The translations under genes and the position numbers were made by a program. The notes below the pieces were generated by a model. It saw only the letters and a list, made by a program, of their open reading frames with translations. It was not told the DNA's origin and made no database searches. From Octopus vulgaris (taxonomy: Eukaryota), in the NCBI GenBank assembly GCA_951406725.2, contig OX597814.1, forward strand, positions 91,574,001-91,638,000: DNA of 64,000 nt, written 5' to 3'. Positions 3,192 to 61,389 of the stretch are shown piece after piece (position 1 is the first letter of the stretch; every line of letters starts with the position of its first letter).

Positions 3192-3789
3192 CATTAATAC
3201 TCATCAGAGATATTAATGTTTGTGGCCGCAAGCTAAAATAGGCAAAATTAATAGATATATATATTTTAAAAAATATTTATAACAAGGGTGTTTTTTTTAA
3301 GACGTCTCTTTTTCCTGCTCCTGAATTGAATGCAGGTTTACCTTATTGAACTATTTTGTTATATAAATTCTTACCAATTCTTGATTTGTTACCACCTTTT
3401 GCTATTTTCTATGTCTTACCAACATACTACCTGCGTTAGCAAGGTTATGTTTTTCTGAATCCCCCCTATTAAGGGCCAATTATTTTATTAACTCTCTTTT
3501 TGTGTAAAATCTTTACACATGGATACCTGACCGGAAAACGAGATGCAAGTAATCCTATTAGACGAACCATATCAGGAAATGTTCCCCACTCCCAAGTCAC
3601 GAAGCGAGGGAAAAGGAGAATGTATCCGAACAAGAAATACAAAAGGAAATGTACCCGAAAAATAGTAATAACAAATTTAACTTTGCGTCTGTTGCGGGTG
3701 TCACAGGTTGACCCGGACGAGCTGGAGAAATACAAGTGTTTAATGCAAAAGAAGGGAACCAATGTAAAACAGATCCCACCCGGGGAAAT

Positions 3790-4290
3790 GATGCACATCA
3801 CAAAGAGGCATACAATAGTGTACAAGGCCTTGTCACTCAAAACGAAAATAATTGAAATGGCTACTAAAGAAGCAATCGAAAAATGCCTGCAGCCGAAATA
3901 TTGTTAGTAATCGCTTGTTTTTGGAATTATACATATTTTAACAATTAATTCTCTTGTATTTAAGATCAAATTAGTTGAAAGCAACCTGTGCATTTTTTTG
4001 TCAACGTGAAGTAGAGACAATATCACAATTGTTTGGTATTGTGAACACGTACAAGCCTTTTGGCAATGCTTCTTAGATCTGCAATATGAAAAATGCCTAC
4101 ATGTTGGCATCATGAACCCACAGCTTATGGTGTTCGGGTTAAGAAAAAGTACATATACTGAAAAAAAAATGTTTTTTATATAAGAGCAAATTATCAAAAA
4201 CCACTCTTAGCCTCAAACACTTTAGACACTTTGTTCAGGACAGGTATTTTATTGAAACAAAACATCTTACAATAAAAGTAAATAAGATGA
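3790..4290 (+). mobile_element. Decayed L1/Tx1-like LINE fragments
   Basis: 3930-4100 gives the broken frame ILTINSLVFKIKLVESNLC.FCQREVETISQLF..CEHVQAFW, resembling the C-terminal zinc finger of L1/Tx1 ORF2. 3800-3895 (IVYKALSLKTKIIEMATKEAIEKCLQ) resembles 27301-27385 (IVYKTIS.KDKRLQTATKQVVEKCLQ). Confidence 0.6.
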
Positions 4291-5725: not shown

Positions 5726-5999
5726 TAGATGAATTTGGGCAGCAATAGTTTAATTGTAAAATTTCGGATAGAAATCTTACAACTTATTTCTACAACATTT
5801 CCGATAACTAGGAGTCTTGTGACATTCGACTCGACAGCGTTGATACCAGAAATCTTACCACATCTTATTCCTATCTGACAACTTTGACACTAGGATTTGC
5901 ATAAAAATCATTTAAATTACTACAGATGTATAAAAGAACTGAAGGAAACATTTGCAATTTTTCTTTTTACAGAAGAATACAAGTAATTATTATACATAC

Positions 6000-6041
6000 C
6001 TCACCATTAAAGAAACAATACAGAAGAGCAACAAAGATCCC
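6000..6041 (-). CDS. Class B1 GPCR 42-nt TM7 exon
   Basis: The minus strand reads ctttttctttgcag|GGG ATC TTT GTT GCT CTT CTG TAT TGT TTC TTT AAT GGT GAG|gtatgt, which translates GIFVALLYCFFNGE. This is the conserved 14-codon G.FV...YCF.N.E exon of class B GPCRs and is in frame with the previous exon. Confidence 0.96.
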
Positions 6042-6228
6042 CTGCAAAGAAAAAGTAAATTATATGCAGATATTATAAAAATTCAAAATAGAGACAAAAC
6101 AGTTAATAACTGTTGCGTAGGTGTTAAATATTTTCATAATTGTCTTATATTAATTCTAGGAAGATTACTGCCTAATAATAATCTTGTAAATGTATTTATA
6201 TATTTGCAGTTATCATGAACTATATATA

Positions 6229-7130
6229 CAGTACCGTGAAAAAGCCTTCGTCCACTCTAAAACTATTGTAAATTTCTACTAATTGCCAAATTGTAAGTGG
6301 ATGTTTCTTATTGGGTTTTTTTTTTTTTTTGCGGATGAAACATTGGCCCTGTTGGTATCATTTCCATACCTAATCATTGTATTATATAGTAGAGGTTCTG
6401 AATGAGAAGGGAAGATGCAAGACGACCACCAAAAATGACCGTGCAAAAGTTTTCAGCTACCTCCCATTGACCAATCAAGATATAGTGTTTTAAGACAGAA
6501 AAATGCCTATAATGAAAATTCATTACATAATATATGTTTGAAGAAGTTACTGTACATTGTTAATATTTCGCGTGTCTTCCCTTAGTTTGAGTAATTGCGT
6601 CAATGAGTCTGGGAAGAGATGCGTACAAATCCTTCACGATCTTCACAGGTGTGAGATGTCATTCTCTGTGGCTGAGCTCTTACAACTTTTCGAGATTGCA
6701 TGGATTCTTCTGACGAACACTTCTCTTTTGTTCTGTCCACATTTGCTCAATGATATTTAAGTCAGGGCTCTGAGTAGGCGAATCTTTCAGTACGGTAACA
6801 CCTTAATCAGTCAAACTATGAAGTGCTGCACGCGATCTGTAGCATGGAGTTCCGTTATGCTGAATAATTTCACCTTCATCCAACTCAGGTATCAAATTGT
6901 CCTGCAGTACTCGATGTAACTGGCCCTATTCAAGTTACTGTCAATTTTAACTAAATTCCTTGAACCATCGCTTTTTATGTATCCATAAAGCATCAGACTT
7001 TTTAAAGCCCCCAAGCGTCACTGATTTTGTTATGTAATATGGGTCGTTCGCTTTCCTGGAGGCCTTCTGACAAATTCATCTAATACCTGTGAAGATGGTG
7101 AAGGATTTCTACGCATCCTTTAAGATTTTT
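6229..7130 (-). mobile_element. Decayed Tc1-like (DD34E) transposon
   Basis: The terminus is TA-CAGTACCGTGAAAAAG. The minus strand near 6735-6780 gives PTQSPDLNIIEQMW, the Tc1 catalytic E motif. Confidence 0.8.
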
Positions 7131-7139
7131 CATAATGTT

Positions 7140-8220
7140 GGAAACCTTTTATAGAATTATATTTTCCGAAGATTTTTTTTTTTTAAATACGTTTATCTGC
7201 TATAAAAGTGATTATCTCCTTTTTTTGTTTTTAATCCTTGGTTTTCTGTCAAGAGAAAATGTGTAAATCCTTCTCGGATGAAATCCTAATTTAATTATGG
7301 CTTCATTGTTGACTGGTTTTATCATGACCACTTTAACAGTTTGCTTGGATGAAGCATTATGCGGGTTCTATTTTATATGAAAGCACTCTACTTTTTTAGG
7401 GCTTAAATTGATTTATATATCCTTCTTCTCTTATTGGATCCTTATTTTCCTTTCTGAATTTTAAAATTTTATTATTTGTTTTACAAAATATTATAATATA
7501 TAAATTTTGTTAAATTTTGGGTATACCCTTTCCACCTGCCCATAGTGACTTTCTTTGTTTTCTATTTTAGGTGCCTTTTAACTGATAAAAATAAAATAGT
7601 TTATGTCACCCCTACCCTCCCTCTTTTGGGCATATATCACTATCTTACTACTATCTTCTGAGACTTGTTCCTTTATGTAGTCATAGCGAATTTATAGCCA
7701 CAGTAAATTAGGTGTAGGGAAGAATATATGGCATTAATTAATTTATGATCAGCAGCTAAACCTTAACTGTCAATTCCCAGTGGTTTTAATTCTTAGTGGA
7801 CGTGGAATTCTAGCTGCATCAGATCTTTTGATGGTGATAAGTAGATAGATATATTACCATTTCATTACCCCCATTGTTATTCTCTTCTGCGCCTCCAAAT
7901 TATTGTTGGAGCTTTTTCTCCCTAAGTTAATACTGCTACAATAATAGCAACCGGCATGTAATTCTTTTTGTTCTCTAGTTCTAATGAAAAATTTGCTAAA
8001 CATTTATAATGGAATATCTTGTATGTTGAAAACCTGGTTGGTCTTATGCATCCAAAAACGACGGTGTATTTCAAATTGATTTAATGCTCGAATTGATCAA
8101 TTAAATGGATCCCCTTGAACGCCTGTAATACACTAAATACTTCGATATCCTTGTAACTTATTTGCTTTTTACTCACCTTACTTCGAGCTGTGCAGATAAT
8201 ACCAGACTGACTTGGTTCAA
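7140..8220 (-). mobile_element. Highly decayed probable PLE remnant (GIY-YIG C-terminus)
   Basis: The minus strand at 7920-8200 shows only weak, fragmented resemblance to a PLE endonuclease C-terminus, followed by AT-rich UTR-like DNA. Confidence 0.35.
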
Positions 8221-8887
8221 ATATACAGCCACAGAAGCACACAGACACACAGACACACAGACACACACACACACACACACACGCACACACAGAAATAAAT
8301 TAGTCTCATTCACTCACATAGATACACACACTCGTGTGCATGCCTACATCGTAAGATATCGGCATATGTATGTTTATATATACATATATGTACTGCATAT
8401 ATATATATATATATGCGGGTGTTTGACACTAATGCACGGACGTTGCAAGAAACATACAAAAGGTTGTAAATTTAATCATGTGTTCATTCTCTACAAACAC
8501 TTGACAGATAACATTCAGAGCATTGATTGGTTGGACTTGTTCAGTCAACTGTTTTAGCCTTTACTTACGACCCCAGACATTATCACTTAATACTAACACA
8601 GAAATAGCGGGGAAACTACAAAAATTTCTAAGACCAGTAATGTGAATATCTTGTAACAATCAAATGTTGTTCAAAACCTATACTAATTAGAGCGGTGAAC
8701 TTCCTATAAAAACGGGGCAACACTCAAACACTAGCCAGAAGAAAGACAGCTGCGACGTAAGCCACGTCTTGCTATTTGAACAATTTAAAATCATGTAAAC
8801 TGGGTAACCGGTTAAAGCTTCAGACATATTAACAAAAAAATATTTTAACGGTTCTTAGTGCATTTTCAAATTCTGCTTTTTCCTATG

Positions 8888-8954
<67 letters not shown>

Positions 8955-9284
8955 ATGTATATTATATTAAATTAGAGATAAAACCACTATTAGGCCAATC
9001 ATACAATGAAAAACTTAAGCCAATACATAAGATTAATTAATTATATTATTTAAATATATATCAAAATTATTAAAAAAGATAATTAATATAACAATACGAT
9101 CGTTTCATGGCTGTTCAATTCTCAAAATTTTCGAGTTACAGTCATTCTTCAGGTGGTTTACATATCTTGTTGTATTATTGAAATACTACATACTCACTGA
9201 ATGATAATCGAGTTAATGATCCCATCATAACGAATTAGACAGGGGGAATAATGTTTTCTTGATCGTATGAATGACAAAGTTCAA

Positions 9285-9290
<6 letters not shown>
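8955..9290 (-). mobile_element. Solo PLE pLTR-like fragment with a hammerhead motif, between (TA)n tracts
   Basis: Minus 9091-9157 reads ccac CTGAAGA atgactgt..acagccat GAA ACGATCGT A. Its end motif ttagagataaaaccactatt matches ttagagacaaaaccactatt at about 15947. It is flanked by (TA)n on both sides. Confidence 0.75.
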
Positions 9291-9329
<39 letters not shown>

Positions 9330-9362
9330 GAGTTGAACTTTGTCATTCATACGATAAAGAAA

Positions 9363-9420
<58 letters not shown>

Positions 9421-9509
9421 ATGTATGTATGTATGTATGTGTGTATGTGTGTGTGTGAGTATCTATATATACATATATATAAATATATCTATCTATATAT
9501 CTATATCTA

Positions 9510-9552
<43 letters not shown>

Positions 9553-9561
9553 AATTATATA

Positions 9562-9617
<56 letters not shown>

Positions 9618-9819
9618 ATGTATATGTATATATATGTGTGTGTGAATGTATGTGTATGTATATGTATATATGTGTGTATGAATGTGTGTGTGCCTATATT
9701 TGTACACCACCATCGTTTGACAACCGATGCTGCTGTGTCTACGTCTCCCTAAGTCAGCCTTTTGTAAAAACACGCCGATATGATAAGTGCTAGGCTTACA
9801 AAAATAAATCATATATATA

Positions 9820-10028
9820 TATAACAAAGTGGAGTTGTAGGGTACCGCACGAGTGGAATTATATACGAAAGAAGGTTTGAAAATTGCTTCATTACATTAG
9901 CAATTTGTAACAACCAATAATTAATGCAACCAAACTTCTACACGTTACTTTTAACAATCTTTTTCCAAAGAGTGAAACCGGTAAAGTAAATAAACATCTT
10001 TTAAATTGCATTTTCAAACCTTCTTTCG

Positions 10029-10034
<6 letters not shown>
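9820..10034. mobile_element. Mini element with a 24-bp inverted repeat and a decayed hammerhead-like core, flanked by (TA)n
   Basis: 9860-9883 tatatacgaaagaaggtttgaaaa is the reverse complement of 10011-10034. The interior reads ttactt-ttaaca-atcttt.ttcc.aaagagt-GAA-ACCGGT-A-aagtaa. Confidence 0.6.
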
Positions 10035-10060
<26 letters not shown>

Positions 10061-11264
10061 TACATCTCTTTCCCTATATATCCCCCACAGATACACACAT
10101 ACACGCACATACACACATACGTATATGACTGACTTATTTCAGTTTCTGTTCAGCAAATCCATTTGTAAGGCTTGAATATTTGCTTTTTTAATTCCTTCAT
10201 ACTATGCTTATTATAACGTGGGCTGTGAATCTCTAAGTTGATTTGTAGTAGAACAGTGGTTGGAGGTGCTATAGGCTTGGTTGGTCGATTGCTTGATCTG
10301 TAAAACTGTTGACTTGATTAGTCTGATATTTGAGACCTTTATAACTTCCCGCTTTTAATGTTACATTCTTTATGTTGTGATTCTACTCATTAGGTTTTAT
10401 TATATATGAAGGGAATAAGTATTAATAATTTAACAAAAGTAGCGTTCGGTAAATACTTATTAATAATTAAACAGATTTGTGCGTATGAATGACTGATAAA
10501 TAGCGAAGATGAGGATATCGTAAATTCCACAAGTGTTAATCAAGAGTTTTTAACGAGCTTAAAAGTGCATCTCTAAGTTGCCGTTTAATTTGCTTAAGAC
10601 AGCATCTCAAACCTCTCAATTTGCACACTGTCGTCTTTATAACAGAAAAATAAGGAAAACACTACTTGATAATGCAGTTGAAGATGTAATATGGTGAATA
10701 AAAGGAAGATATTGTCACGGATTGAACACGTTTGATCATATGTCTGTTGAATGAGTGGGTATCTTCTGTCAATCAATGTATCAGTCGAACGCTTTTATGT
10801 CCGAAATGATCAAATGTTTTTTGATAATTACATCTACCGAAGTGTATATTCGTGCTATGAAGATAGGCAAACAACAAACGATTGTGATTGCTAGCGGGCA
10901 TACCAGATTGTTGTATGTCTTCGTTTTCTCATTTACTTATACATTCTTGTTACTATTGCACTAGAAATTTTGAAACTTCAAACAAAAGTGTAATGTCATT
11001 AGGCATAATTTTCATATTGATCTATAAGTATTATTAACTTAAAAATGCAGAACGCAAAACTGTGCATTATACGTGTGTGTGTGTGTGTGTGTGTGTGTGT
11101 CTGTCTGTCTGTCTGTATGTCCGTGTATTTGTGTTTTTGTGTGTTTGTTTGCATTTATATACATATTCATATAGATATATAGACAGATAGACAAACAGAC
11201 AGACAGACAGACAGACAGGCAGACAGACATACATACAGACAGACAGGCAGACAGATAGACAGAC

Positions 11265-11336
<72 letters not shown>

Positions 11337-11499
11337 TGATTGATAGATATATTGAGAGATACATGCATACATGCATGCACACATATATTTTCATCTGTAT
11401 AGCTAAATGTATACATACACAGGCACGTGCATCCCCTTATGAAATCCATGATAGTTGGCACGCGATATGTATTCCACATTTGTATGAAGTTCTTACTCA

Positions 11500-12470
11500 T
11501 TTGTAATATTAACCATGAATAAAAGTCATACCAACCACTAACTGTTGAGTCCTGACCTCTTGGTAACTACATATTGCGCTCAAATAGACATGTGGGTTAC
11601 TGGCTGGGTTCATATACATCTAACGTGTTACAAGATCAAATATGCTTGAGGTATATTCAAACCCGTAAGAAAGCATACACTATATTTGAACTGGTAACAA
11701 GTTTACATTGATACATTTCAACTGCTTATCGCTGTCACCCCGTCTTTTATTCACGTTGAGCTGCTGAAAAACGCAACCAGTCCTTGAACGGGGACAAAAA
11801 TATCACAAAAGTGACCCGCTCCTCGTGACAGTTATCAACGTCGAGTCTCTGTTGCTGAAGAGATCACAATTCTGAAAAGCATGCATCCAACAGTCTGGTA
11901 AGGAGCGCTGTGAAACGGCTCGGTGTGTTTACACCTATGTGTTTACAGCGAGAAACTTTATCAATTACTTAGAAATGGTACATTGTGACTGCACGAAAAA
12001 TATTGTCTTTATGAAGCAATGAGGAACAAATTAGAGTACAATCATATCTGATACAGGGGGAAAATGCCACAGTAAAAGTGGTTGAACAACGAATCAAAAG
12101 AGTCTGTCGGGGAAACAAAATGACATCTGTACAGGCCTCCATAAGAACGAACAATTGGTTTACTTACCCTAGTAACACAGTGTACAGATTCATAACGATA
12201 AAATTTATGGATACATTTTGCTAGTAGACTGAATATAAATTTGAAATTTCCTACGTCTATTGCAATTTGGGAAAAAAGTTAAACATGGACTCCACTTTTT
12301 CCTGTGACATTTTGAGGCACTTTTACCTGTGACATTTTGATGCACTTTTACCTATGACATTTTTCTGTAGAATTTTTGTCCTATGGTAATTTTAGCTTGG
12401 CAATTTTAATGTGGCAGTTTTAGTGTGGCATTGTTTCTTATCGCGCTTTTTTCTGTTGCATTTCTCCCCT
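11500..12470 (+). mobile_element. Possible decayed MULE-like transposon end
   Basis: An IRTNN motif lies near 12140. At 12295-12470 is a run of short degenerate subterminal repeats (cctgtgacatttt / gtggcanttt). Confidence 0.4.
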
Positions 12471-13411
12471 GATTTGGAGCATCTGTGGTGCTCACTGTGA
12501 GTAATATCAATTCGGCTGAGAGTAAGGACAGACTGACTTGTATAAACCTCAGACTTTACCTATTAGCACTTTTGTGGAATCGGTTAGCCTAACAATTTAT
12601 ATTTAATTCAGACTATCGGAAAAAAATGAACGTGGCTTTTCATGGGCTGAGTTCACTTCACTTATGCTTTTAGAAAATCAGGAGTATATCTTAAATACGA
12701 TCCAATTTTTTCTTGCCAATTGATATGAGGCGCCGTTATTGTGTCACGTGATGTTCACTACTGACGTCAATGTTTGAATGGCATTCATATATTTCACGAT
12801 TTAATAACTATTTCGTGGTTTTCATCGTTTGGTAACATGCGTACGCTTCATCGCATTATTTGTAATTTATTGATACGAGATATCCAGTCATGTTTCTCTC
12901 GCAGCTAAATATGATTACTATATTCTACTGCGAAATATCTTTGATGGAATATGGACACGTAACTAACTGCTAATCAGAAAGTAAGTGACCGATATATATT
13001 TCCCTAGATAAGAATGTAAATAGTCTACTGAATATCGGTTAATTTTGTTTCTATTAAGGAAAATAGACACAAGTATTTATAAATGACAATAATATTTGAT
13101 AATTTTCATTTTCTTTAAAGTATTTAGCCAGGGCCGTTTTAGTTGTAATTTAGGCTCCTGCGCAACAACATTCAATAGGACTTCATAGTGTGTACTAACT
13201 ACCAGCGAGCCACAGAATACATCGATAGTTTGAGGGTTCTGTAAATTCCAATTATAACATTAAAACTATCAGATATCTTTCAGGCGGATTTTGTTGCTAC
13301 TAGCAGAATCAATATATACCAATTCCAAATAAGACTATTCCTCTGCCAGCATACTGTTTGCACATCAATGTTTCAGCTTCGACAGCGATGTATTCTTAAC
13401 CTACGATGCAT

Positions 13412-13731
13412 ATAGGAGCACTCCGTCGATTACGACGACGAGGGTCTCAGCTGATATGATCAACGTAACAGCTTGCACTTGAACGTACAAGTGGCTGAGC
13501 ACTCCACAGATATGTGTACCTTTAACCTAGTTCTCAGGGAAATTCAGCGTGACACAGAGTGTGACAAGGCTGGCCCTTTGAAATACAGGTACTACTCATT
13601 TTTTCCCAGATGAGTGAACTGGAGCAACGTGAAATAAAGTGTCTTGCTCAAGGAAACAATCCGTCGTCGGGAATTGAACTCCCGACTTACGATTGTGAGT
13701 CTAATACCCTAACCACTAAGCCACGCGCCTT
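13412..13731 (-). mobile_element. tRNA-derived SINE
   Basis: The head is GGCGCGTGGCTTAGTGGTTAGG...GAGTTCAATTCCC (box A/B). It is followed by ccttgagcaagacactttatttcacgttgctccagttca, a core shared with the copy at 55977. Confidence 0.88.
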
Positions 13732-15015
13732 CATGGATGCATATAACACAAAGGGAATCTTTATTATATATGCATTGTAAATACTTATGCATGCAACAAT
13801 ACAAATCTTTAATAATTTTCTGAAATATTCTGTTTGACTGTAAGAGACTACAAGTTTTTTTCTGAATATAAAGGCGCAAATTTGTAGATTTGTTGCATTG
13901 TTGGATAGAATGTTTCTCTGTGTTTTCACAATGTTTTCACCCTAACTTTAAACTGCTGTGCAATAACACCTTTCGCCTTCCCAAACACAAGTTGCTGACA
14001 TCACCCAAGGCTTAACCAAATAGATTTTTTTCTGGTGAAAACTGGGCCTCCAGGATAAAAACAAATAAACATTGATCTAATTGAGACCAGTGGTGTCTTA
14101 AGGGAAACAACAAATCGGAACACTGTACGACCGATATATTGCATTTAATATATAATCAATAAAAGAATTTCTTGCTATTCTGACACATAAAGCAGCCATA
14201 TTGTTATTTGAGTAAAAATAGTTCGCTTACGGCATTTTAGAAACGCTAGGTTCTTATCAGTTATCAACTCTTATATTATTCATCGCAATATGTTCTAGTA
14301 CACCATGTTAATTGACTCGAGTATATTCATATTTTCACGTAGTCAATTTTATGCAGGTCAGTGAGTTGGAATACAGTTTACAGAGAATTTTAAATCATAT
14401 ATATCACTAAATAATTGCACCTAAAATATTTATTCTATATTCTATATGCAACATTTCTTGTTTATGTCTATTTGAGACATCCACAGCTATAAAGAAATGT
14501 GAAAGCTAAATGTGATGAGAAATCTCTCCCCTCGCCTCATCTACTTTTCTCTTTCCTGCTCTCTTGTGTGTCTATTGCAGTCTGCATGTATATGTAGATG
14601 GATGGCTGACTGGCTGGCTGACTGCCTGGTTGGATGGATGCTTTAATGGACAAGTGGACGGTAAATTGGCATACAGCGTCGGAAAAATGCTTTTGTAAAT
14701 ATTTCGGTTATCACATTGCCATAAAAACAATCCGTATAAATTAAACTATTTAGTTGATTGCATTCCACCAGCTATTGTATTTCTTTACATGGCTAGAAAT
14801 AATTTCGAACAATATTTTATTCTAAATTTCGATTTTCGCTCACTCAAGCGTCAAATGCGTATTTCTAAAGAAATAGACCTTATTAACAAAAGTGAAAAAA
14901 ACTCTACGAAGTTAAAATACACATTGAATAAGAAGTATTTGTAAAAACGAACTTATTTAGACATCGATCAAAAGATATTAATGGCAGAGAAAAATGTTTA
15001 GGAATGTATGTATGA

Positions 15016-15046
<31 letters not shown>

Positions 15047-15239
15047 ACGAATCACTGGCGCAAAGCAGTGTTTAATTATAGGCAGAATTTAGAAAACTAT
15101 CCTCCATGTTTGTTTTCGTTCGGTTTTCTTGTATGTCTGCACTGTCATTTTTTTGTTCGCAACATTAACTCTCCATAAATCCTAAATATTATTTTAGAAT
15201 TTATGGGAGGAACTGTCTTTGAAGATTCATATATATATA

Positions 15240-15310
<71 letters not shown>

Positions 15311-15347
15311 TATATATATATTTTCTAAGTGACTCACAATCACTGAT

Positions 15348-15880
15348 CAAATAAAATAGAAACATTGATGTTCCTAAATATTTCAAGGAGAGATATTCAT
15401 AGCAGCACTTTAAATTCACGAGTGTTTTCCAACCTAATGTGGTAGTCCCCTTTTGGGACGAATGCGAATGTTGTTTAGTCCCCGGAGACATCGTCAACAA
15501 CTGGCTTTACGACACGCGATCTGTATCCTTATATTTTCGAACAGGGGAGGTTGGCACCCCCACCCAGCAAAAGGCAGTGTCTGTCGACCGTACTGTTTCG
15601 GGGTTATTTTTCGGTTGCGATGGTACTGCTAAACACATGTTCGAAAACATATACTCAACCAATAAAATAGAAACAGTGTTGTTCCTAAATCTCTCAACAA
15701 GAGATATTCAGTAGCAGTACATTAACGTGATCGGTTTCTGCCAACCTAATGTGACAGTTCCATTTTGGGGCAAATGCTAGTGTTGTTTAGCCCCGGTAGA
15801 CATCATCTCCTGCTGGATACACGACACACGATCTGTGTCCTCATATTTCTGAACAGAGGAAGTTAGCATCGCCACCCAGT

Positions 15881-15883
<3 letters not shown>
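15348..15883. repeat. Diverged tandem duplication with a period of about 310 bp
   Basis: 15350-15570 and 15661-15880 share ordered blocks: aataaaatagaaaca, gttcctaaat, agagatattca, ccaacctaatgtg, tgttgtttag.cccgg.agacatc, gatctgt.tcc and cacccag. Confidence 0.8.
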
Positions 15884-15944
<61 letters not shown>

Positions 15945-16031
15945 TATTAGAGACAAAACCACTATTTTGCAAAACAAACAAGGAAAGACTTAATCAATAC
16001 ATAAAATTTTAATAAATAGTCAAAAAAACCG

Positions 16032-16074
16032 CCACTACAATTGTTTCCTGTCTTGATCGACAATCTTCAGGTGG
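16032..16074 (-). ncRNA. Minimal type-I hammerhead ribozyme motif (inverted copy)
   Basis: It is the same as 17136-17178 except for CTGAAGA. The difference is at the variable N7 position. Confidence 0.9.
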
Positions 16075-17135
16075 ACTTCCAATCTAAAATATCAATATTT
16101 TAAAATATAAAAATAATAATTTTAAAATAATTAAAGTATTAATGAAAAAATATAAATATATAATCCATATATAACCTATATATAATCCATATATAATCAA
16201 TATATAAACAATATATAAACTAAAATAAACCTATCAACAATTAAATATAAAATATAAAATATAAAATATAAAATATAAAATAAAAAATATAAAATATAAA
16301 ATATAAAATATAAAACAAAACAAAAAAAATAATAATAATATAATAATAAACTATATATACACCCATACACATATAACTAATTATATATAACCATATCTAA
16401 CTACATACACTAAATCACACTCCTATATATATATCCCTATACATACACATAAAAACGTCTAGGCAACTATAAATAAATAAAATAGCTAAATACTTCAACA
16501 CAATACTTATTCATACTCTCACACACACACATACAACCCACATTCACGCTCTAGAAACGGACATCACTTAAAAAGTGTTCGTTTTACCAAGTGAATATAA
16601 TTTTTAATTCCATTTATTCCATTTCTCCGTTCATAATTTTAAGTGATGTCCGTTTCTAGAGCGTGAATGTGGGTTGTATGTGTGTGTGTGAGAGTATGAA
16701 TAAGTATTGTGTTGAAGTATTTAGCTATGTTATTTATTTATAGTTGCCTAGACGTTTTTATGTGTATGTATAGGGATATATATATAGGAGTGTGATTTAG
16801 TGTATGTAGTTAGATATGGTTATATATAATTAGTTATATGTGTATGGGTGTATATATAGTTTATTATTATATTATTATTATTTTTTTTGTTTTGTTTTAT
16901 ATTTTATATTTTATATTTTATATTTTTTATTTTATATTTTATATTTTATATTTTATATTTTATATTTAATTGTTGATAGGTTTATTTTAGTTTATATATT
17001 GTTTATATATTGATTATATATGGATTATATATAGGTTATATATGGATTATATATTTATATTTTTTCATTAATACTTTAATTATTTTAAAATTATTATTTT
17101 TATATTTTAAAATATTGATATTTTAGATTGGAAGT

Positions 17136-17178
17136 CCACCTGATGATTGTCGATCAAGACAGGAAACAATTGTAGTGG
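17136..17178 (+). ncRNA. Minimal type-I hammerhead ribozyme motif
   Basis: The motif is ccac-CTGATGA-ttgtc(gatcaa)gacag-GAA-ACAATTGT-A-gtgg. It has stem I ccac/gtgg, a 5-bp stem II, a palindromic stem III and a GUA cleavage triplet. Confidence 0.9.
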
Positions 17179-17355
17179 CGGTTTTTTTGACTATTTATTA
17201 AAATTTTATGTATTGATTAAGTCTTTCCTTGTTTGTTTTGCAAAATAGTGGTTTTTGTCTCTAATAATATTTTATAATATTTTACTATAAAATTGGATTT
17301 AATCCTAAATCTGATTTTTTTCCCTGTAAATTTGGATTTATTCCCTAATATTTAT

Positions 17356-17402
<47 letters not shown>

Positions 17403-17616
17403 ATTCTTCCGTTATGGTGAGATTAACAAAAAAAAATGGTACTCCATAAATATTATTTGATTAACACAGTATATATTTTATGAGCTACTAATTGTTCCAA
17501 GCAATGAAAACATCTCATACAACATCTTTAAACAAGTCTGATGCTTTTACGCAATCCTCCCGCAGTTTATATGTATGATGATTCCAATGTTTATATACAT
17601 ACACACACACGCACGG

Positions 17617-17696
<80 letters not shown>

Positions 17697-18502
17697 TAGT
17701 ATTATACTGCAGAAACTTAAAATGTACACATTCACCCCGATTCATACTCCTTCCTTGTTAACATATTTTCATATTTGTAGCTCTTCTCTCTCTCTTTCTC
17801 CCTGTCTCTTTCTCTCTCCCCCTCTCTCTCTCTCTCTCACTCTCTTTTTCTCTACCTCTCTCTCTTTCCCCTCACACTCATACATTTTATACTATTACAA
17901 GAAGATTGGCAACAGTAATTTTGAAGTTACGGCCTGCTACTCTAATCGAACTTTTCGAGAACAGATCGAGACATTGAAATTACTGTCATCATACTTCCTA
18001 CGACAGAATAATACATATATACTATGCAAAAAGTATTGAATAATCCGACAGTTTAATTCAAAATTGATTTTAATTTGGTATAAATATAAACATTAATTTA
18101 TATATGTATCTTTGTGTACGTATGCATGTGTACGTTGCGTATGTATTTGTATGTGTGTGTATGTGTGTGCATGAATGATTGTAGGCAAATAAGCGAGTAA
18201 GTATTGAAGTCTATATGTTGCAGATATATTGTATGAATGCCAAAGATATCTGAAAAACAGCATATGTTTTGTGGTAAAATACATGCATATACATACATAG
18301 GAACACATACGCACGCCTGCACTCGTACACACACACCTGCAATCACACACACACAAATACGCACACATGCACACACATACACACATATACACACACGCTC
18401 ATACACACACAGAGCATATTTATGCGAGCAGAAATCAAGAAATATTTTACCGTAATGTATGAGAACGTTTGTATGGTAAAGGGGAAAATATTTATGTAAT
18501 AC

Positions 18503-18638
18503 CTGAGATGACTGAAGGACTGCATTTGCGATGTGGTAGACTGATTTCCACGTGCCCTCAATACCTGGTTCAGCGAAAAATAACAGATTTGTAATTCCTA
18601 GCAGAGGAAATAATACGATAGTTGCCCGAATGGCTTTC
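18503..18638 (-). CDS. Class B1 GPCR exon, TM6-ECL3-TM7 start
   Basis: Junctions are ttttctcttttatgcag|G AAA GCC ATT ... TCT CAG|gtatta, 136 nt. It translates (R)KAIRATIVLFPLLGITNLLFFAEPGIEGTWKSVYHIANAVLQSSQ, with the TM6 PLLG motif and KA.RAT typical of CRF/DH44-type receptors. Confidence 0.96.
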
Positions 18639-18924
18639 CTGCATAAAAGAGAAAACAAATATTAGCAAAATAGCAATTTCAAAGAGGACAACAACAATAT
18701 CAAAATATTCAATGATAAACGATTCTAATATAAGCTTAAGTGATAATATTTTAGGGTAAAGTGTTAAAGAAATATTCGATTATATGGAATCTAGTAAATG
18801 ATTGGCGCGTATTTCATTAAAATTTGTCGGTTTAACTAAAACTTCCCATGTGTTTTCACCTAAAAAGTATGTAAACAAAGACTAAGTTGATACATAGCTG
18901 TTACCAACTACTCTTAATAATTCT

Positions 18925-19205
18925 TTCTGCTAGGCGGAGTTCTCATCAGTGGCTACGCCAAAACATTACTACATAATTTAGAGGCAGAATAGCACGTGTC
19001 TCATCATTATATATATGTTGTTTAGCTCCGGTAGACATCATCTCCTGCTGGCTACAAATTCACTTCGCAAGCACGGTTTCAGTCGGCAGCAAATGAAAAT
19101 ATGTTTTGGCGTAGCAAATTATTTTATTTGCTAATTAGTTTGAAACATAGGTATGGCTGTAAAAAAAAATCAAGGTAAAAGTTTTTTTTTTTCGTTTTCC
19201 ACTTC
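18925..19205. mobile_element. Partial copy of the MITE at 20981-21480
   Basis: It shares tgctaggcggagttctcatcagtg, caaattcacttcgcaagcacg and agcaaattattttatttgctaattag with 21157-21400. Confidence 0.85.
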
Positions 19206-19249
19206 AACATTGCTCTGAAGTTTTGTTGGAGGGGACTAATTCGGTTATA

Positions 19250-19400
19250 TCGTATCCAGTTCTTGACTGGTATATATTTTATGGATCCCAAAAGGATGAA
19301 AGACAAAGTCGACTCTATGCGAAATTTTAACTCAAAACGTAAAGACGGACGAAAGCCATCCTGTCCTGCGTGATAACGATTCTACTAACTCGCTGCCTTA
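19250..19400 (-). mobile_element. Decayed SINE of the family seen at 27131
   Basis: aaggatgaaagacaaagtcgac is the approximate reverse complement of gtcgactttgcctttcatcctt at about 27154. Confidence 0.7.
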
Positions 19401-19652
19401 ACCACTCTCAATAATAATTATGATAATATCCTACAATGCTTAATTGTTGGACTTCAAAGTAGAGAGATCAATTTCAGAAATGCTCTTCTAGCAGGTTTTC
19501 GAATTAGTAACTGATCTCAGCACATGTTTTAGTCTAGTATGTATTCAATCCTTTGCATTTTTGCCGAATCGGTAGTTATGCTGACGCAATCCAGCCAGCG
19601 CGGGATGTCAGTGTAGAGAGACAAAACAAAAATCCCAAGACAGACAGACACA

Positions 19653-19745
<93 letters not shown>

Positions 19746-20149
19746 GCGTAAACATATACATGCATATATATAGAGAGAGACATACACGCACACGCATAAG
19801 TTTATGTGTGTGTGTGCGCGCGCGCTTGTGTAATGTGGGCATCCCCTTTATTATTGTCCAAAACACCCCTTCAATCCCATTGGTACATCCAGATCTATAG
19901 CAGAAGACGTGTTCCGTCGTGCGATATAAATGAGGCAGAAAAACTCAGAAGAAACCACACGCTTAAGTGACTAAAATATGAACCACACTTCCATGCCAAC
20001 GACAAATATTTTTCCGTACTTGTTATCAGCAACTTCCACTACATCAAACATTTGAAAGCCAGACGCCACCAATTAAACAGTAGCAAGCATACATTAAATG
20101 CGTTACTATTAATATGCAACAAATTTTAATATCATCATATCAAACTAAC

Positions 20150-20235
20150 CTTATTTGTGCACTTTCCATGGTATTATGAGCCCGCAGTTTTGTTACTAGA
20201 ACAAATATAATGTTGATCAGAAAAATGAGGTTAGT
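20150..20235 (-). CDS. Class B1 GPCR (CRF/DH44-receptor-like) exon, TM5 second half and ICL3
   Basis: The minus strand reads ttctctccttcattcacag|ACT AAC CTC...CAA ATA AG|gttagt. This is an 86-nt exon translating TNLIFLINIIFVLVTKLRAHNTMESAQI(R). It has the N.IFL.NI..VLVTKLR motif of secretin-family receptors, and its phase-2 end matches the next exon. Confidence 0.95.
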
Positions 20236-20513: not shown

Positions 20514-20980
20514 GTGTATGTGATCAAAGGCCAACTAAGATGGAGCGGCCATGTGGTTAGAATGACTGACGAACGACTTCCCAAACAGATCTTCTACTCC
20601 CAACTCAAAGACGACAAGCGTACAAAAGGAGGCCAGAAGAAACACTACAAGGACTCCCTGAAAACGAACCTCAAAAAGTGTGACATCGACTTCACTAACA
20701 GGGAGGAAACGGCAAAAAACAGACCACTCTGGAAAACCACCATCCATGAGGGAACGGCGACTTTCGAGTCGAAGAGGTCTGCAGAGCTGGAGGAGAAAAG
20801 ACGACGACGGAAGGAGCGCCAACAACAACCACGTGCGACTCTCCCTTCCGGCACTAGATGTCCGCACTGCGACCGATCTTTTCAAGCAAGAATTGGTCTT
20901 ATCGGTCACCTACGGACTCACCAGTAAATTTGCGCGAAGACCATCATCCTCGACCTTGAGGGATTGCCATCATCATCACA
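20514..20980 (+). mobile_element. 5'-truncated RTE (BovB-like) LINE 3' end
   Basis: The ORF reads QLRWSGHVVRMTDERLPKQIFYSQL...GGQKKHYKDSLK...CPHCDRSFQARIGLIGHLRTH*. A short 3' UTR ending in (CAT)n follows. Confidence 0.93.
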
Positions 20981-21480
20981 TTTAAACACTAAAGAGGCGA
21001 CCCTTAACAGGCAGCCTTACACGCTAGAAGAGGCAGTCAAAAACGATCAAAACCACATTTAAGAGCAATTTGGAAGGGAATGAAAATTAAAAAGTTTTAC
21101 CTTGTTTTTTACAGCCAAACCTAGGATTCAAACTCTAATTACTAAATAAAATAATTTGCTAGGCGGAGTTCTCATCAGTGACTATGCCAAAACATTAACA
21201 TAAAATTTAGAGACAGAATAACACGTGTCTCTTCATTATAAATTATAATTTCTCAAATTCACTTCGCAAGCACGTAGCAACTGATGAAAACCCCGCTTAG
21301 CAAATTATTTTATTTGCTAATTAGAGTTTGGAACCTAGATATGACTGTAAAAAAATTAAGATAAATGTTTTTATTTTTCATTCCCTTCGAAATTGCACTT
21401 AAATGTGATTTTGATCCTTTTGACTGCTCCTTCTGGCGCGTAAAGTTGTCGGTTAAGGGTCGCCTTAATTGTGATTAAAT
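20981..21480. mobile_element. Foldback MITE with about 200-bp imperfect TIRs
   Basis: Paired blocks include aggcgacccttaac/gttaagggtcgcct, gcagtcaaaa/ttttgactgc and aaataaaataatttgcta/tagcaaattattttattt. There is no ORF. Confidence 0.85.
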
Positions 21481-21612
21481 GTACACTAATTTTATATGGA
21501 GAATATATGTTGTCTATTGGCGTTTTATACATGCTAGGCCACTGGTTGTGAAAATTTTCCAAAATTCGCTACCCTATATATTTATTATACCTGTACACAC
21601 ACACACAAACAC

Positions 21613-22530: not shown

Positions 22531-23703
22531 TTGTTGTTCTTCAAAGGGCTGCTGACTATTTTACTTTCAACGCCGTCCTCACCCATCGATGTACCCTCAC
22601 TGTCACAGCTTGCATCATATTCGTCACCACTTCATTACGATACGATAACTTCGTTCCACTCCGTGAAATCGTCCTCTCCATTCAGCATCATTGAACCTTT
22701 ACCATCGATCTCCTCCGCATTTTCTCCTTCCACCCTTTCATCTCAATCCTCTTCCTTCTTACCGTTTTGTTTCTCTTCGTCTTCCTCCGCTTCCTCTGCA
22801 TTCGCCTTACCTGCCACCTCACCGGTTACACTGCTCTTTTGTTCTTCTTCCTCCACTTCGTAGTTATCACGTGACGCTTCTTGCGCTTCCTCTTCAGTTT
22901 TCTCCAAAGAACCACCTTTTCTTCTACATTCTTCGTGTACTTCGTCAACGATATCAAGATACTTTTTCACAAGAAAACACTGAACACACCTCAAGCTCGT
23001 ATCGACAATCTGAATGCCAGCAACTCGACAAAAGGGCAATGTTGGGTTCTGCTGTTTCTTTTTATTTTGTTTTTGATTTCGCACTGAAAAGATTTAAGCT
23101 TCCATCTTCAAAGACGCCCTTGGCATAAAACGTTGTGTATGTAACAGTGGCCAAACAGACAACCCGGTGCATGTAACGCATATCCCCGGAAGACTTATTT
23201 TACGCTGTATCCTGCGCCAATAAAAAGAAAGGACAGACCCCTCCAAAATGCAAACAGCTCAGCGGGTATAGCTGCACAAAGGGGTACCATGTTTGAAGTA
23301 TAGTTGACACATTAAGACAACGAGCCAGAAAAGTTGTAGACAGGCAATGCAACGGCAAGATCAAAATAGTGAAAGCAATGAATCAAGAGTTCAATCCTAG
23401 GCGCAACAGGCCACGTGTGGTAGCAGGTTCCTTATGACAATGGACCCCGTTTTGTAACGGGCCATGACGAATGAAATGTTGCTATTAGAATTTGAATCCG
23501 GCGTCCATTGGCCTTATTCACGAGCAAACTTGCAATGCATTCACGTACACATCAAAGAAATAAAATAACATAATAAACATCGTGAAAACAAGACTATGTT
23601 TTAACTTTTATTCAACTGATATATTATTCTATACACGTTCAAACAAATTCGAAAAAATGATAATATATATATATAGATATATAGACAGACAGATAGATAA
23701 ATT

Positions 23704-23770
<67 letters not shown>

Positions 23771-23772
23771 AA

Positions 23773-24726
23773 TATGTGGTTCACTCTAGTGCTAAAAATA
23801 GATCCGCTAATGGTATAGCCACTAAAAGTTGTTTCTAAGAAGAAATACCACTACAGTTAACGTAAGGTAGGTGAAACACAACGAAAAATAGATTAACCCT
23901 GAACAATTGTTTCATTATTAATGTAATATGCAATTTTACTTGCATAACATCCATAAATCTTCAGCAGAGGTTTGTCTTAAATACAATTTATTAAATCGCA
24001 GCGAGCGTCAAATACACGTGCGGTTTAATCGATTGTATTCGTAGTTATGATTCAAATTTCCCCGCCAAAAGAGCGATAAGACTTACTGGAAACGAATACT
24101 GCATAAAATATTTACTGCAGTATACTTAAATATATTTGGAAAGACGTGACTTATCTGTCGAGGGGTAAGAAATATAGCATAATGAAAGTTAAATTTGTTA
24201 CAGAAGATGTAGCAAAACGGCCCTCAAAAGTCCAGCTGAGAAACAGCGAACTTGTCCTAGTTCGGTCATACTGGAACGGCATATGGCCAAAATAATAATA
24301 CCGGCGATACCACCAGAAATGAACGCTTGCTTGATTGTCGCGGCCTCCCTTCTCGACTTGGAAGATAAGATTTCCCCGCGATTTAATAAATTGTATTTAA
24401 GACAAACCTCTGCTGAAAATTTATGGATGTTATGCAAGTAAAATTGCATATTACATTAATAATGAAACAATTGTTCAGGGTTAATTTATTTTTACGTCGT
24501 GTTTCACTTACCTTACGTTAAATGTAGTGGTATTTCTTCTTGGAAACAACTTTTAGAGGCTATACCATTAGCAGATCTATTTTTAGCACTAGAGTGAACC
24601 ACATAGTGGTCGCTCTCTAATATTTATGTATAAATTTGTATTTTCTCCCTTGGTTTTTATGTGCTAAGCCACTTGGTGTTAAATTGAGGGTATTATTAAA
24701 TTAATATCAAATTTTTCACCCTCATT

Positions 24727-24730
<4 letters not shown>
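23773..24730. mobile_element. Non-coding PLE-type inverted-arm element: 227-bp arms, 378-nt spacer, about 125-nt tail, inserted in (TA)n
   Basis: 23773-23999 is the reverse complement of 24378-24605, with about 9 substitutions counted. Each arm has a hammerhead, and (TA)n lies on both flanks. Confidence 0.9.
23895..23972 (-). ncRNA. Type-I hammerhead motif with a long stem II
   Basis: The motif is aacctctg-CTGAAGA-[tttat..atgttatgcaa gtaaaa ttgcatattacat..ataat]-GAA-ACAATTGT-T-cagggtt. The mirror copy at 24405-24482 (+) has G8>A (CTGAAAA). Confidence 0.8.
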
Positions 24731-24774
<44 letters not shown>

Positions 24775-26363: not shown

Positions 26364-26423
<60 letters not shown>

Positions 26424-26579
26424 TATTTATTTTTTTTATTATTACACGGAACACTGCTCGTGGATTTCAAAGAGGAAGGACGTGTTCTCGTGAGTTATAA
26501 GATTTTGTGCAATATTTACAGATAACATTGCCGTATCTGAAAAATGTTTATGACATTTCTATGGCCAGACCGACTGGGC

Positions 26580-27720
26580 TCTAGGCGGGACTTTTCCCCT
26601 TTTGGGGCAAATTTTCAACTTAAAATCTCCAGCTTTTCATTTTTCGATTTTTAAATTGGTAACAATGTCCTTGGAGAAGAGTGTCAGCTCTTCCTTTCTT
26701 TTCGACTTCCCTTCCCCGCAAATATTTAAAATTAATTTTCTCCGCCCACTCCGCGCCTTAAAAGGCAGAGAGTGGGACGACAAAAGCTTTCCTACCGCGT
26801 GCAACACAGCAAAATAAGGAAAAGAAAGAAAAAAAAACTGCGAGAATGAAGAGAAAAAGAGCAAGGAAATTCAGATAATGGGTGCTGCCTGCTTTGCAAC
26901 ACCGGTGGATCCAAGCCCTCCAACTACCACAAGAAACACTAACACATTGGCCATCCAACAACAACAACCCAATGCATTAAACAGCCGAAGTTTTGCTTTA
27001 ATAGCAAAACCAAGCAATGAATTAATAGATGTCTGTAGAACCTCGCAATGGCTACAGAAACATTTTAAAAAGTAAAAGCGAATGATGCGTTTCGATAAAC
27101 GTATCAACAGATATTATAGAGAAAACAAACATGGCGAGCTGGCAGAAACGTTAGCACGCCGAGGTCGACTTTGCCTTTCATCCTTTCGGGGTCGATAAAT
27201 AAAGTACCAGTTTCCCACTGGGGTCGATGTAATCGACTTAATCCCTTTGTCTGTTCTTGTTTGTCCCTTCTATGTTTAGCCCCTTATGGGCAGTAAAGAA
27301 ATACATAGTGTACAAAACTATATCATGAAAAGATAAACGTTTACAAACTGCCACAAAGCAAGTAGTTGAAAAATGCTTGCAACTCATTTGGAAAGACGTG
27401 ACTTATCTGTCGAGGGGTAAGAAATATGGCATAATGAAAGTTAAATTTGCTACAGAAGATGTAGCAAAACGGCCCTCAAAAGTCCAGCTGAGAAACAGCG
27501 AACTTGTCCTAGTTCGATCATATTGGAACGGCATATGGCCAAAATAATAATACTGGCGATACCACCAGAAATGAACGCTTGCTTGATTGTCGCGGCCGCC
27601 CTTCTCGATTTGGAAGATAAAATCAGAATCATTGAAGTCGAGAAACAAAGAAAAACAAAACAACTTGACTGGTCAAGAAGTGGGGAAGGGCTGTCTATTT
27701 GTGCAGTAGGGAAAGATGAG
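26580..27720 (+). mobile_element. Decayed LINE 5' region / ORF1-like sequence (tentatively Tx1-like), interrupted by a SINE
   Basis: The broken frame reads MGAACFATP...RSFALIAK...IVYKTIS.KDKRLQTATKQVVEKCLQLIWKDVTYLSRGKKYGIMKVKFATEDVAK...AKIIILAIPPEM. A homologous fragment is at 3800-3895. Confidence 0.55.
27131..27303 (+). mobile_element. SINE with an internally deleted head
   Basis: It has a head ggcgagctggcagaaacgttagcacgccg and a core gtcgactttgcctttcatcctttcggggtcgataaataaagtaccag. Related copies are at 19250 and about 55700-55870. Confidence 0.8.
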
Positions 27721-59537: not shown

Positions 59538-59576
<39 letters not shown>

Positions 59577-59653
59577 TGCAGCGTGGAAGGTGTTTATAAG
59601 CCATTTAAGAAACACACAAAAGCCGTTCGATTCACTTCAACATTTAAGTTTAA

Positions 59654-59703
59654 TTTGTCAAAATATTTTCGTCGCTAAAATCCGCGACCTGTTCACTGAC
59701 AAA
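59654..59703 (-). ncRNA. Hammerhead-like motif with a G3-C8 core
   Basis: The motif is tttgtca-GTGAACA-g-gtcgc(ggatttta)gcgac-GAA-AATATT-T-tgacaaa. The mirror copy is at 63779-63828 (+). Confidence 0.8.
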
Positions 59704-60690
59704 AATCCGTGCTGCATCTGAGAAAGTAACAGTTAGTTCGTTATATATATGTACGTATGTATGTGTGTATGTATGCATACATGTGTGTATGTATGTACGT
59801 ATGCATGTACGTACATACGCCTGTGTATGCATGTATGTATGTATGTATGTATGTATGTATGTATGTATGTATGTATGTATGTATTTATGTATATATGTAT
59901 GTGTGTGTATATGCACGCACATACACTCTATAAACATAAAGCTATAAACCTGTAGCTATGGATAGAAGTAGAGTGACCACTCATCACAATACTATCAAAT
60001 TTCAACTTCCTCCGGCCGAAGCCTGGAAGTGATTTACGACCCTTACTCCCAAAACTATACCCTAAAACCTATTATCAGATCTTTATCTCTATATCACAGA
60101 ACTTTTGTTTTACTATTGTGCGTATGTATGTATGTGCGTATGTATGTATGTATGTATGTATGTATGTATGTATGTGTGTATGTATGTGTGTATGTACATA
60201 CGTACGCATGTGCGTATGTACGCATACGTGCACGTATGCATGTGCCCATGTATGTGTGTGCGTACATGTACGTGCGTATGTACGTGTGTATGCCCATACG
60301 TAGGTATGTATGTATGTTTGTACTCATGTGCTACGTATGTATGTGAGTGTCTAGGAGAATGGCCAGACGTGTCTGTGAGAGTGTGTACATGTGTATGTGA
60401 ACATATGTCCGTGTACTGGCATGTGTCCGTCCAAGTTGTGTACATGACTGTTACTTTGTTGAAGGTTGTATACATATTCACATATATGTTTGTATAGACG
60501 CACACACATACATATCTGTGTGTGGGTGTGTGTTTGTTCCTCTCATCACCGTCTAACCGTGAATGGATACAACGCCTGTACATAGGCGTTGTATCAAACA
60601 ACGTACGCTCATACTGTTATATATAACTGCACATACGCATTGCAACCTGTATGTAAGGACTACAAGTAAACGAGAGAGAGAGAGGGGTGG

Positions 60691-61384
60691 TTATAGAATA
60701 GTCCTTCTGAATGGGATCTGGATGTTACTCCATTCGGACTTTCGGTTGAGAGTAGGTTTGTATTCTTGTATACAAACAGCTTCTGTGACCTGTCTCAACA
60801 TTGCATCGGTGGGATGTGTTGATAGGATGTTCAACTTAAGTTTCCCTAAGGATCCCTTGTGGCAGTCTACAGCATGTTGGTAGAAGATGGAGTTTGGCTT
60901 CCTTTCAATGTAGTTGTCCAGCTGTTCTTTGAACGTATCATTGATGCTTCTAGAAGTCTCACCTATGTATGATTCTGGGTTAGTCGCGCAAGCTTCCTCC
61001 TGGCACTTAATCTGGTATACAGTGCCCTTGGTTTTACAATTTACATGTGGATTTGTCGAACATACTGCACAATTACTTTGACAGATGATACTATCAAATG
61101 GATATGACCTGCATAATGCCGATTTGATAGTCCTACCTGTCTTTTCTGCAACTTTAATTTTTAGGCCCGTAGTGCGCAGGATTTTCTTGAATGCCTTACT
61201 TAGCTCGTTCTTAGGTGTGGCGTCAACGAACATTACTCCGTGAAATCTCCTGTTATCGTACCAAGTAACGTTTCTCATCCTTTTGTTGGTGTCCCTCTCT
61301 AACCTATTCCAGAACTTGTTGCGGTATAGGGGGCATACACCGTTTTCGTCGTTCCTTAGAATGCGTTCGAATCTAGCTTTCGCT
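60691..61384 (-). pseudogene. Inverted copy of the PLE linker and intact GIY-YIG endonuclease domain
   Basis: The open frame reads GTVYQIKCQEEACATNPESYIGETSRSIND...H..DCH...RQVTEAVCIQEYKPTLN. Confidence 0.92.
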
Positions 61385-61389
61385 AGCCG

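Follow-up and report, generated by a model that had tools for sequence, protein, structure and literature searches.

A 235-nt stretch at the joint between two hammerhead retrozyme copies in Octopus vulgaris is a real duplication and derives from one specific neighbouring locus. It may well have been written by template switching onto nearby DNA while the two cDNAs of a Penelope-type enzyme were being joined. This templated insertion at a Penelope-type retrozyme joint is genuine, rare and not propagated, and it looks like a rare accident of the kind known from human L1. The DNA analysed, called the window below, is 64,000 nt of contig OX597814.1 read on the forward strand. Features are listed in Table 1.

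Table 1. Coordinates in the window of the insertion, the captured segment, its donor and the host-gene exons.
Feature	Position	Strand	Basis or remark
Host-gene exons	two at 18503..20235; three within 5982-20235	-	exon peptide and protein match
(TA)n tract, left half of target site	23708..23762	.	sequence
Left arm, 5'-truncated retrozyme copy	23763..24135	-	3' end at first preferred start site (unit ~157), 5' end at unit ~252
Type I hammerhead (predicted), intact core	23890..23976	-	CUGAAGA at 23958-23964, GAAAC, palindromic stem III; predicted cut after 23902
Source of the 10-nt filler, within left arm	24056..24065	+	sequence match
Captured 235-nt copy of 27386-27620	24134..24368	+	0-2 nt microhomology with left arm
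Filler templated from 24056-24065	24369..24379	+	left, 3-4 nt imperfect microhomology (one mismatch) with source; right, 2 nt with right arm
Right arm, 5'-truncated retrozyme copy	24378..24736	+	unit position 388 to second preferred start site (~260)
(TA)n tract, right half of target site	24737..24772	.	sequence
Decayed LINE ORF1-like (plausible) interspersed repeat holding the donor	26400..27682	+	homology to 28 paralogous loci flanking the donor on both sides
Donor segment	27386..27620	+	genome search, alignment and paralogue comparison

The insertion and its retrozyme family

The structure annotated as a hairpin is a pair of 5'-truncated retrozyme copies, whose full unit is ~485 nt and carries a type I hammerhead. 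They are joined head to head within (TA)n, a target in which a target-site duplication is undefinable. Each arm is shorter than one 485-nt unit. The left arm carries a 17-nt internal deletion, and in the hammerhead core of the right arm G8 is changed to A at 24418. Over 23773-23999 and 24378-24605 the arms are identical at 219 of 228 positions, and they have in common one allele found in 0 of 46 other family copies, which argues that both came from one template lineage. We rejected a terminal-repeat element, the arms being head-to-head 5'-truncated retrozyme copies, and also a MITE or Pack-TIR with cargo, the arms being offset pieces of a circularly permuted unit whose outer ends differ and whose inner ends vary. 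Two more long palindromes, without a hammerhead core and possibly MITE-like, lie at 16448-16762 and 20978-21482.

The insertion and the donor both lie in a ~56-kb intron, upstream of 20235, of a secretin-family GPCR gene (CRF receptor 2-like), which spans ~158 kb of contig C1 on the minus strand. The host exon peptide was 100% identical to the CRF receptor 2-like protein of Octopus sinensis. An acidic low-complexity frame is found in the same intron (22743-23093, minus strand).

The family was sampled as 160 fetched 10-kb loci plus the window (161 in all), drawn from the best BLAST hits and exact-motif lists, so that the sample is non-random and biased to contigs 1-6. As a gauge of family size, one 18-nt motif occurs 295 times in the genome without a mismatch. 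The period of the unit is 485 nt, circularly permuted, with head-to-tail repetition at L039; head-to-tail repetition was also seen at L174, which has two successive hammerheads. Stem II of the hammerhead is long and stem III is palindromic. For covariation we used 24 rows from 64 distinct core-bearing sequences; the rows were picked for having the core, and the core motifs are invariant in these 24 core-selected rows. In this set 93.5% of the cells were paired and four of the seven stem I pairs had changed on both sides (0/500 shuffles; slid controls 30-47%). Folding of single strands of the two hammerhead regions was not better than that of shuffles (z 0.01 and -0.73), so the evidence for the hammerhead is covariation and not energy. 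An Rfam search of the window at gathering score gave no match. The short unit without an ORF, its type I hammerhead, a predicted ribozyme, and the head-to-tail repeats are consistent with a non-LTR retrozyme.

Among the 161 loci, 92 are head to head, 68 have a single orientation and one is tail to tail. Most outer ends (225/252) lie at two unit positions ~103 nt apart (107 and 118 ends), and 213/252 have a TA-rich flank. The ends and the orientation of the family, with two start sites and inverted copies in (TA)n, correspond to the footprint known from Penelope-like elements. At L141 (4802-5777; G000:C3 near 57,853,000) the head-to-head arms belong to different subfamilies, are 81% alike, and the right arm has a 496-nt period; this locus shows that the arms can be two separately primed cDNAs, from two different RNAs at one cut. 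The 5' end of the left arm in the window falls in a stretch holding 10 of 253 family 5' ends. As this is no clear enrichment, we rejected a recurrent 5' stop there, and the end does not prove an unresected cDNA end.

Several other observations were made in the sample. At L213:4965-5059 the 3' end of one arm is at the predicted hammerhead cleavage position and not at either of the usual start sites. The same palindromic stem III recurs in other hammerhead families, at L225:5901-6367, L114:6973-7058, L183:5271-5372 and L209:6396-6497, and the pair at L225 is also head to head. The same SINE-like repeat was inserted twice, with target duplications, at unit ~213-228 in copies of different subfamilies (L194:5435-5669 and L225:5061-5266).

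The captured segment, its donor and the joint

The first-pass annotation had reported that 235 bp at 24134-24368 match 27386-27620 in direct orientation with about 7 substitutions and no indels. On re-alignment this was exact, with seven substitutions (24176, 24198, 24265, 24271, 24302, 24346 and 24357 in the copy) and 0 indels; the repeat search stretched the match to 238 nt at the cost of one extra mismatch. That annotation expected this locus, rather than another LINE copy, to be the best genomic match of the segment. It was the top non-self match in the 2.8-Gb genome (97%, E 3e-107), and the runner-up had 84% and the rest at most 84%, among 40 scored candidates. An alignment was made with 26 near-full-length copies of the donor repeat (two of the 28 fetched were too short and were omitted). 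The copy and the source agree against the majority state at 28 columns, and 14 of these shared states are seen in 0/26 paralogues. The frameshift said to be shared by both is a 1-nt deletion near 24270, present in just 2/26 paralogues. Other LINE copies that match equally well and have the same frameshift, the refuting condition named in that annotation, did not turn up among these candidates and paralogues.

Homology to the paralogues continues on both flanks of the source (26400-27131 and 27304-27682), whereas the copy ends abruptly, so the direction was from source to copy. Polarised against the paralogues, five changes fall in the copy, one in the source and one is ambiguous; faster mutation of the copy was rejected because these are too few for a call. 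The donor is local, as had been proposed, with an offset of 3,252 nt from copy to source, and it sits 2.65 kb past the right end of the insertion. The spacer assigned to the element was too long, since 24005-24133 is left arm and the foreign part extends only from 24134/6 to 24377.

The donor is an old decayed repeat, plausibly from a LINE ORF1, and is split by a SINE-like insertion at 27133-27303. The earlier label, LINE ORF1-like, is borne out as far as the paralogues have decayed frames with a weak zinc knuckle (L019, Pfam zf-CCHC, E 0.2, below the cut-off), and it stays plausible rather than established. Pfam gave no name to the repeat. The paralogue L021 has a motif which we take, by likeness, to resemble the start of an AP-endonuclease and which had no Pfam match; the fetched flanks of the paralogues end before an ORF2 would begin. 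A frame resembling by eye the LINE ORF1-like family of the donor repeat lies at 3473-3907 (plus strand) of the window.

Read on the plus strand, the left arm overlaps the 235 nt of donor by 0-2 nt, the donor segment overlaps the 10-nt filler imperfectly by 3-4 nt, and the filler overlaps the right arm by 2 nt. The donor match begins at the first base past the left arm and stops 9 nt short of the right arm. The motif atttccccgc, noticed earlier at about 24056 and 24370, is the filler; these are its sole two occurrences in the window, with ~0.0003 expected within the arms. The joint therefore comprises three switches on short microhomologies, that is, serial template switching, probably during integration. 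The patch belongs to neither unit and is flanked by the 5' ends of both, which point in opposite directions. Among the other head-to-head joints of the 92 in the sample, 53 are blunt or have microhomology, 35 carry 1-20 nt and two carry 21-50 nt of element-derived filler, and L141 makes up the remainder.

How the joint may have been sealed

We regard capture during integration, on either type of template, as quite probable and, given such capture, a DNA template as somewhat the better bet. From the anatomy, the local donor, the copying direction, the microhomologies, the filler, the two 3' start sites, the (TA)n targets and the rarity of the event, we infer the following course. A Penelope-like RT/endonuclease would cut the (TA)n tract and prime one cDNA at each DNA end, and the free cDNA ends would need to be joined by microhomology. 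One of them would anneal to the donor, which was probably single-stranded after resection of the right-hand fragment, as this would expose the strand needed. The annealed end would copy 235 nt, slip to the partner arm for ~10 nt and be sealed on 2 nt of microhomology. The candidate polymerase is a host polymerase theta-like enzyme or the RT itself. A purified Penelope-like protein from Anolis cleaves both strands, extends both and initiates at two internal sites of the RNA (PMC11167929), and in the octopus family the two preferred outer ends and the TA-rich flanks match these start sites and the two-strand cleavage and extension. Both patch ends lie at the joint and small-scale joints of the same style occur in the family, which supports capture while sealing. 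Against this reading, there is one event, and its microhomologies are short (0-2, 3-4 with one mismatch, and 2 nt).

Three routes would yield the identical sequence. In route (a) the left cDNA would anneal to the bottom strand of the donor, exposed by resection of the right fragment; in route (b) the right cDNA would first copy 8-10 nt of the left cDNA and then the top strand of the donor. In route (c), which we consider possible but somewhat doubtful, the RT would have jumped from the retrozyme RNA to the minus-strand intronic pre-mRNA of the host, copied 235 nt, gone back to the retrozyme RNA for 10 nt and then joined the second cDNA. The host gene is on the minus strand with both sites in one intron, which makes its pre-mRNA the right template for extending the left cDNA. 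The orientation relative to the host gene thus fits a pre-mRNA template equally well, although the prior for such a strand match is 50%. The polarity of the filler is that of cDNA, as if the retrozyme RNA had been re-copied. Template jumping is described for the R2 RT in the part of PMC2912911 cited here, and transcription-coupled templated insertions at breaks are reported in the corresponding part of 10.1101/2022.09.30.509517. Yet the seven differences bear no A-to-I signature, as only two or three of them read A-to-G on the pre-mRNA strand and one of these more probably arose in the source, and a DNA-only route in either direction gives the same sequence. The DNA template is favoured over pre-mRNA because it has two routes, a natural geometry and no editing signature to account for.

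A different origin is that the insertion was sealed normally and broke later, in the middle of the inverted repeat, where host repair by synthesis-dependent end joining copied neighbouring DNA. Inverted repeats are break-prone, which counts for later repair, and the features of the junctions are generic for microhomology-mediated repair. The divergence between copy and source (7/235, 3.0%) is also nominally below that between the arms (9/228, 3.9%), but the difference is not significant (Fisher p 0.62). The original loop would have been ~136 nt, and 91 other head-to-head loci, many of them with tighter loops, are without such a patch. In addition, run X3, a sample under a different organism label, has the same right junction, so any later repair predates the separation of those lineages. 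We consider repair of this kind unlikely.

The first-pass annotation had noted that the two divergences, about 3% and about 4%, are similar, and they are compatible; we counted this for capture at integration. The divergences are too few to split "at insertion" from "soon after". The contigs flanked by source sequence in runs X1, X2 and X3 carry some copy-type alleles. For X3 the rough depth arithmetic fits merged copy and source instead of allelic variation at the donor (contigs cannot phase), and for X1 and X2 either merging or allelic variation would explain them. With copy alleles in such contigs, by whichever cause, the 3% divergence is not a clean clock. The suggestion that the segment was captured by template switching during or soon after insertion agrees with the look of the junction ends and with a patch that comes from a neighbouring locus and lies outside the family unit.

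Frequency of capture and likeness to other elements

We tested the junctions of the family for local matches with a length of 25 nt or more at 88% or more, starting within 15 nt of the junction and outside the element; at single-arm loci donors more than ~5 kb away would escape detection. Three of the 92 head-to-head joints had a match, namely the window, L141 (the period of its own arm) and L171 (a local duplication of the element itself), the last two being element sequence. Among single-arm 5' ends there was 1/68, an adjacent palindrome at L174, and a foreign patch in 0/68. This 138-nt palindrome (L174:4643-4780) adjoins the 5' end of the family copy. The 3' ends used as a control gave 7/252 (six repeats also present at other loci and one local duplication), and random positions gave 30/322, of which five were long and locally specific. 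Thus the window holds the sole long foreign local copy among 160 5' junctions, or 1/92 at head-to-head joints (95% interval 0.03-5.9%), and the rate of capture is not above the background of local duplications (5/322 random positions). What ties the patch to the insertion is that both patch ends coincide with the joint. Other candidate captures were rejected: the long spacers that L159 and L141 seemed to have are an older subfamily and a second retrozyme subfamily, respectively, and the gaps at L194, L204, L225, L129 and L166 are later SINE-like insertions within an arm.

Local capture might be a regular property of the family, or the patch the cargo of a chimeric element; both would be very improbable, and this reading is largely refuted. 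In its favour, unrelated sequence was captured between Penelope pLTRs in Adineta vaga (PMC3846280, in the part cited), the sample is non-exhaustive and the interval for 1/92 reaches 5.9%. Against it, the rate of 1/160 compares with local matches at 7/252 control ends and 5/322 random positions, and a second copy of the chimera above 84% was absent among the 40 scored genomic matches. The chimera has not spread. The place of the patch between two opposed 5' ends also speaks against cargo. The first-pass proposal that these elements may shuffle local sequence accordingly fails as a family property (1/92 and 0/68 junctions, no second chimera). Comparison of the spacers of other members with their own neighbourhoods, which it recommended, turned up no other foreign local patch among the 160 5' junctions; the segment, being outside the unit, is not a standard part of the family consensus either.

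An assembly artefact is hardly credible: 0/24 runs contained half of the sampled words of the insertion, which has little weight because such contigs drop paths in high-copy repeats, and the left junction is unbridged in the contigs shown from X1-X4, but the seven differences and base-exact junctions speak against it, as does run X3, whose organism label differs from most listed runs. An independent 111-nt contig of X3 bridges the right junction: 42 nt of it are donor-like, and next come the filler and the first part of the right arm; this contig also has a ~15-nt deletion of its own. The contig depths of X3 roughly fit merged copy and source (67.5 expected and 66.9 seen; 54.3 and 58.7).

An autonomous Penelope partner with matching ends was found neither in the fetched loci nor in the window. 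Penelope-like ORF pieces are present in five fetched loci, none as part of the retrozyme unit. At 59573-63909 the window has an inverted arrangement of two frames, 61387-62517 (plus) and 60691-61395 (minus), with no DNA match to the retrozyme unit. By motif likeness we take these to be Penelope-like RT and GIY-YIG-like frames; neither had a Pfam match.

Like the templated insertions of human L1, the octopus patch is a non-element segment of less than 250 bp copied and duplicated in a new retro-insertion, and such events are rare (22 among ~3,600 insertions and 1/92 here). In the portion of 10.1101/2024.08.27.596794 cited, the non-L1 genomic templates are usually below 250 bp and typically within 15 bp of the site, although its distance figures may include donors in the kilobase range; PMC11702581, as cited in part, adds three more. 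In contrast to L1, the octopus donor is 2.65 kb away, the event is germline with a Penelope-type footprint and no poly(A) tail, and what the patch connects is a pair of cDNA 5' ends, not cDNA and target. The patch works like the L1 templated-insertion class and is not an L1 event. Templated insertions at DNA breaks are enriched within 100 kb of the break and can be transcription-coupled, according to the part of 10.1101/2022.09.30.509517 cited. They too show serial switches on 2-4 nt microhomology, short filler from one flank and a donor near the break, but here the joined ends would be retro-cDNAs.

Like metazoan non-LTR retrozymes, the family has a small non-coding type I hammerhead unit, more than one unit head to tail at some loci, and dispersed copies. 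Retrozymes have been argued to be non-autonomous Penelope derivatives (10.64898/2026.07.22.740005; PMC7229834, each as cited in part). Unlike them, the octopus family has a unit of 485 nt instead of the ~300 nt typical in those parts and consists mostly of sub-monomer head-to-head pairs; captured local DNA, as found here, is not described in the cited parts of the two sources. It resembles Penelope-like elements in its inverted 5'-truncated copies set head to head, its pair of 3' start sites and its (TA)n targets (PMC3846280 and PMC8557442, in the parts cited; PMC11167929). The former source, again in part, also describes unrelated sequences captured between pLTRs in Adineta. The octopus unit differs in having no ORF and in start sites ~103 nt apart rather than 30-40 nt, and the donor of its captured piece was located a few kb off, with no onward mobilisation of the piece. 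A literature search, in a collection with few of the subscription journals, found no account of DNA templated from nearby at the head-to-head joints of retrozymes or Penelope elements.

How Penelope-type insertions are completed is still open according to PMC11167929 and the cited part of PMC8557442. The joint suggests that two cDNA ends were free long enough to copy DNA or RNA kilobases away before sealing, and this speaks for two cDNAs primed independently and then end-joined, over a programmed fold-back. The impact on the genome is minor: ~1% of joints are affected, the cargo is a fragment of a dead repeat, and there was no onward spread. The value of the patch is as a seed for a genome-wide census, in which donor strand compared with transcription would separate DNA from RNA templates. 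If, as is less probable, a Penelope-type RT bridging the cut with two cDNAs had jumped onto nascent intronic RNA of the target gene and back, head-to-head retrozyme joints would be germline fossils of RNA-templated local capture and a readout of how Penelope insertions are sealed.
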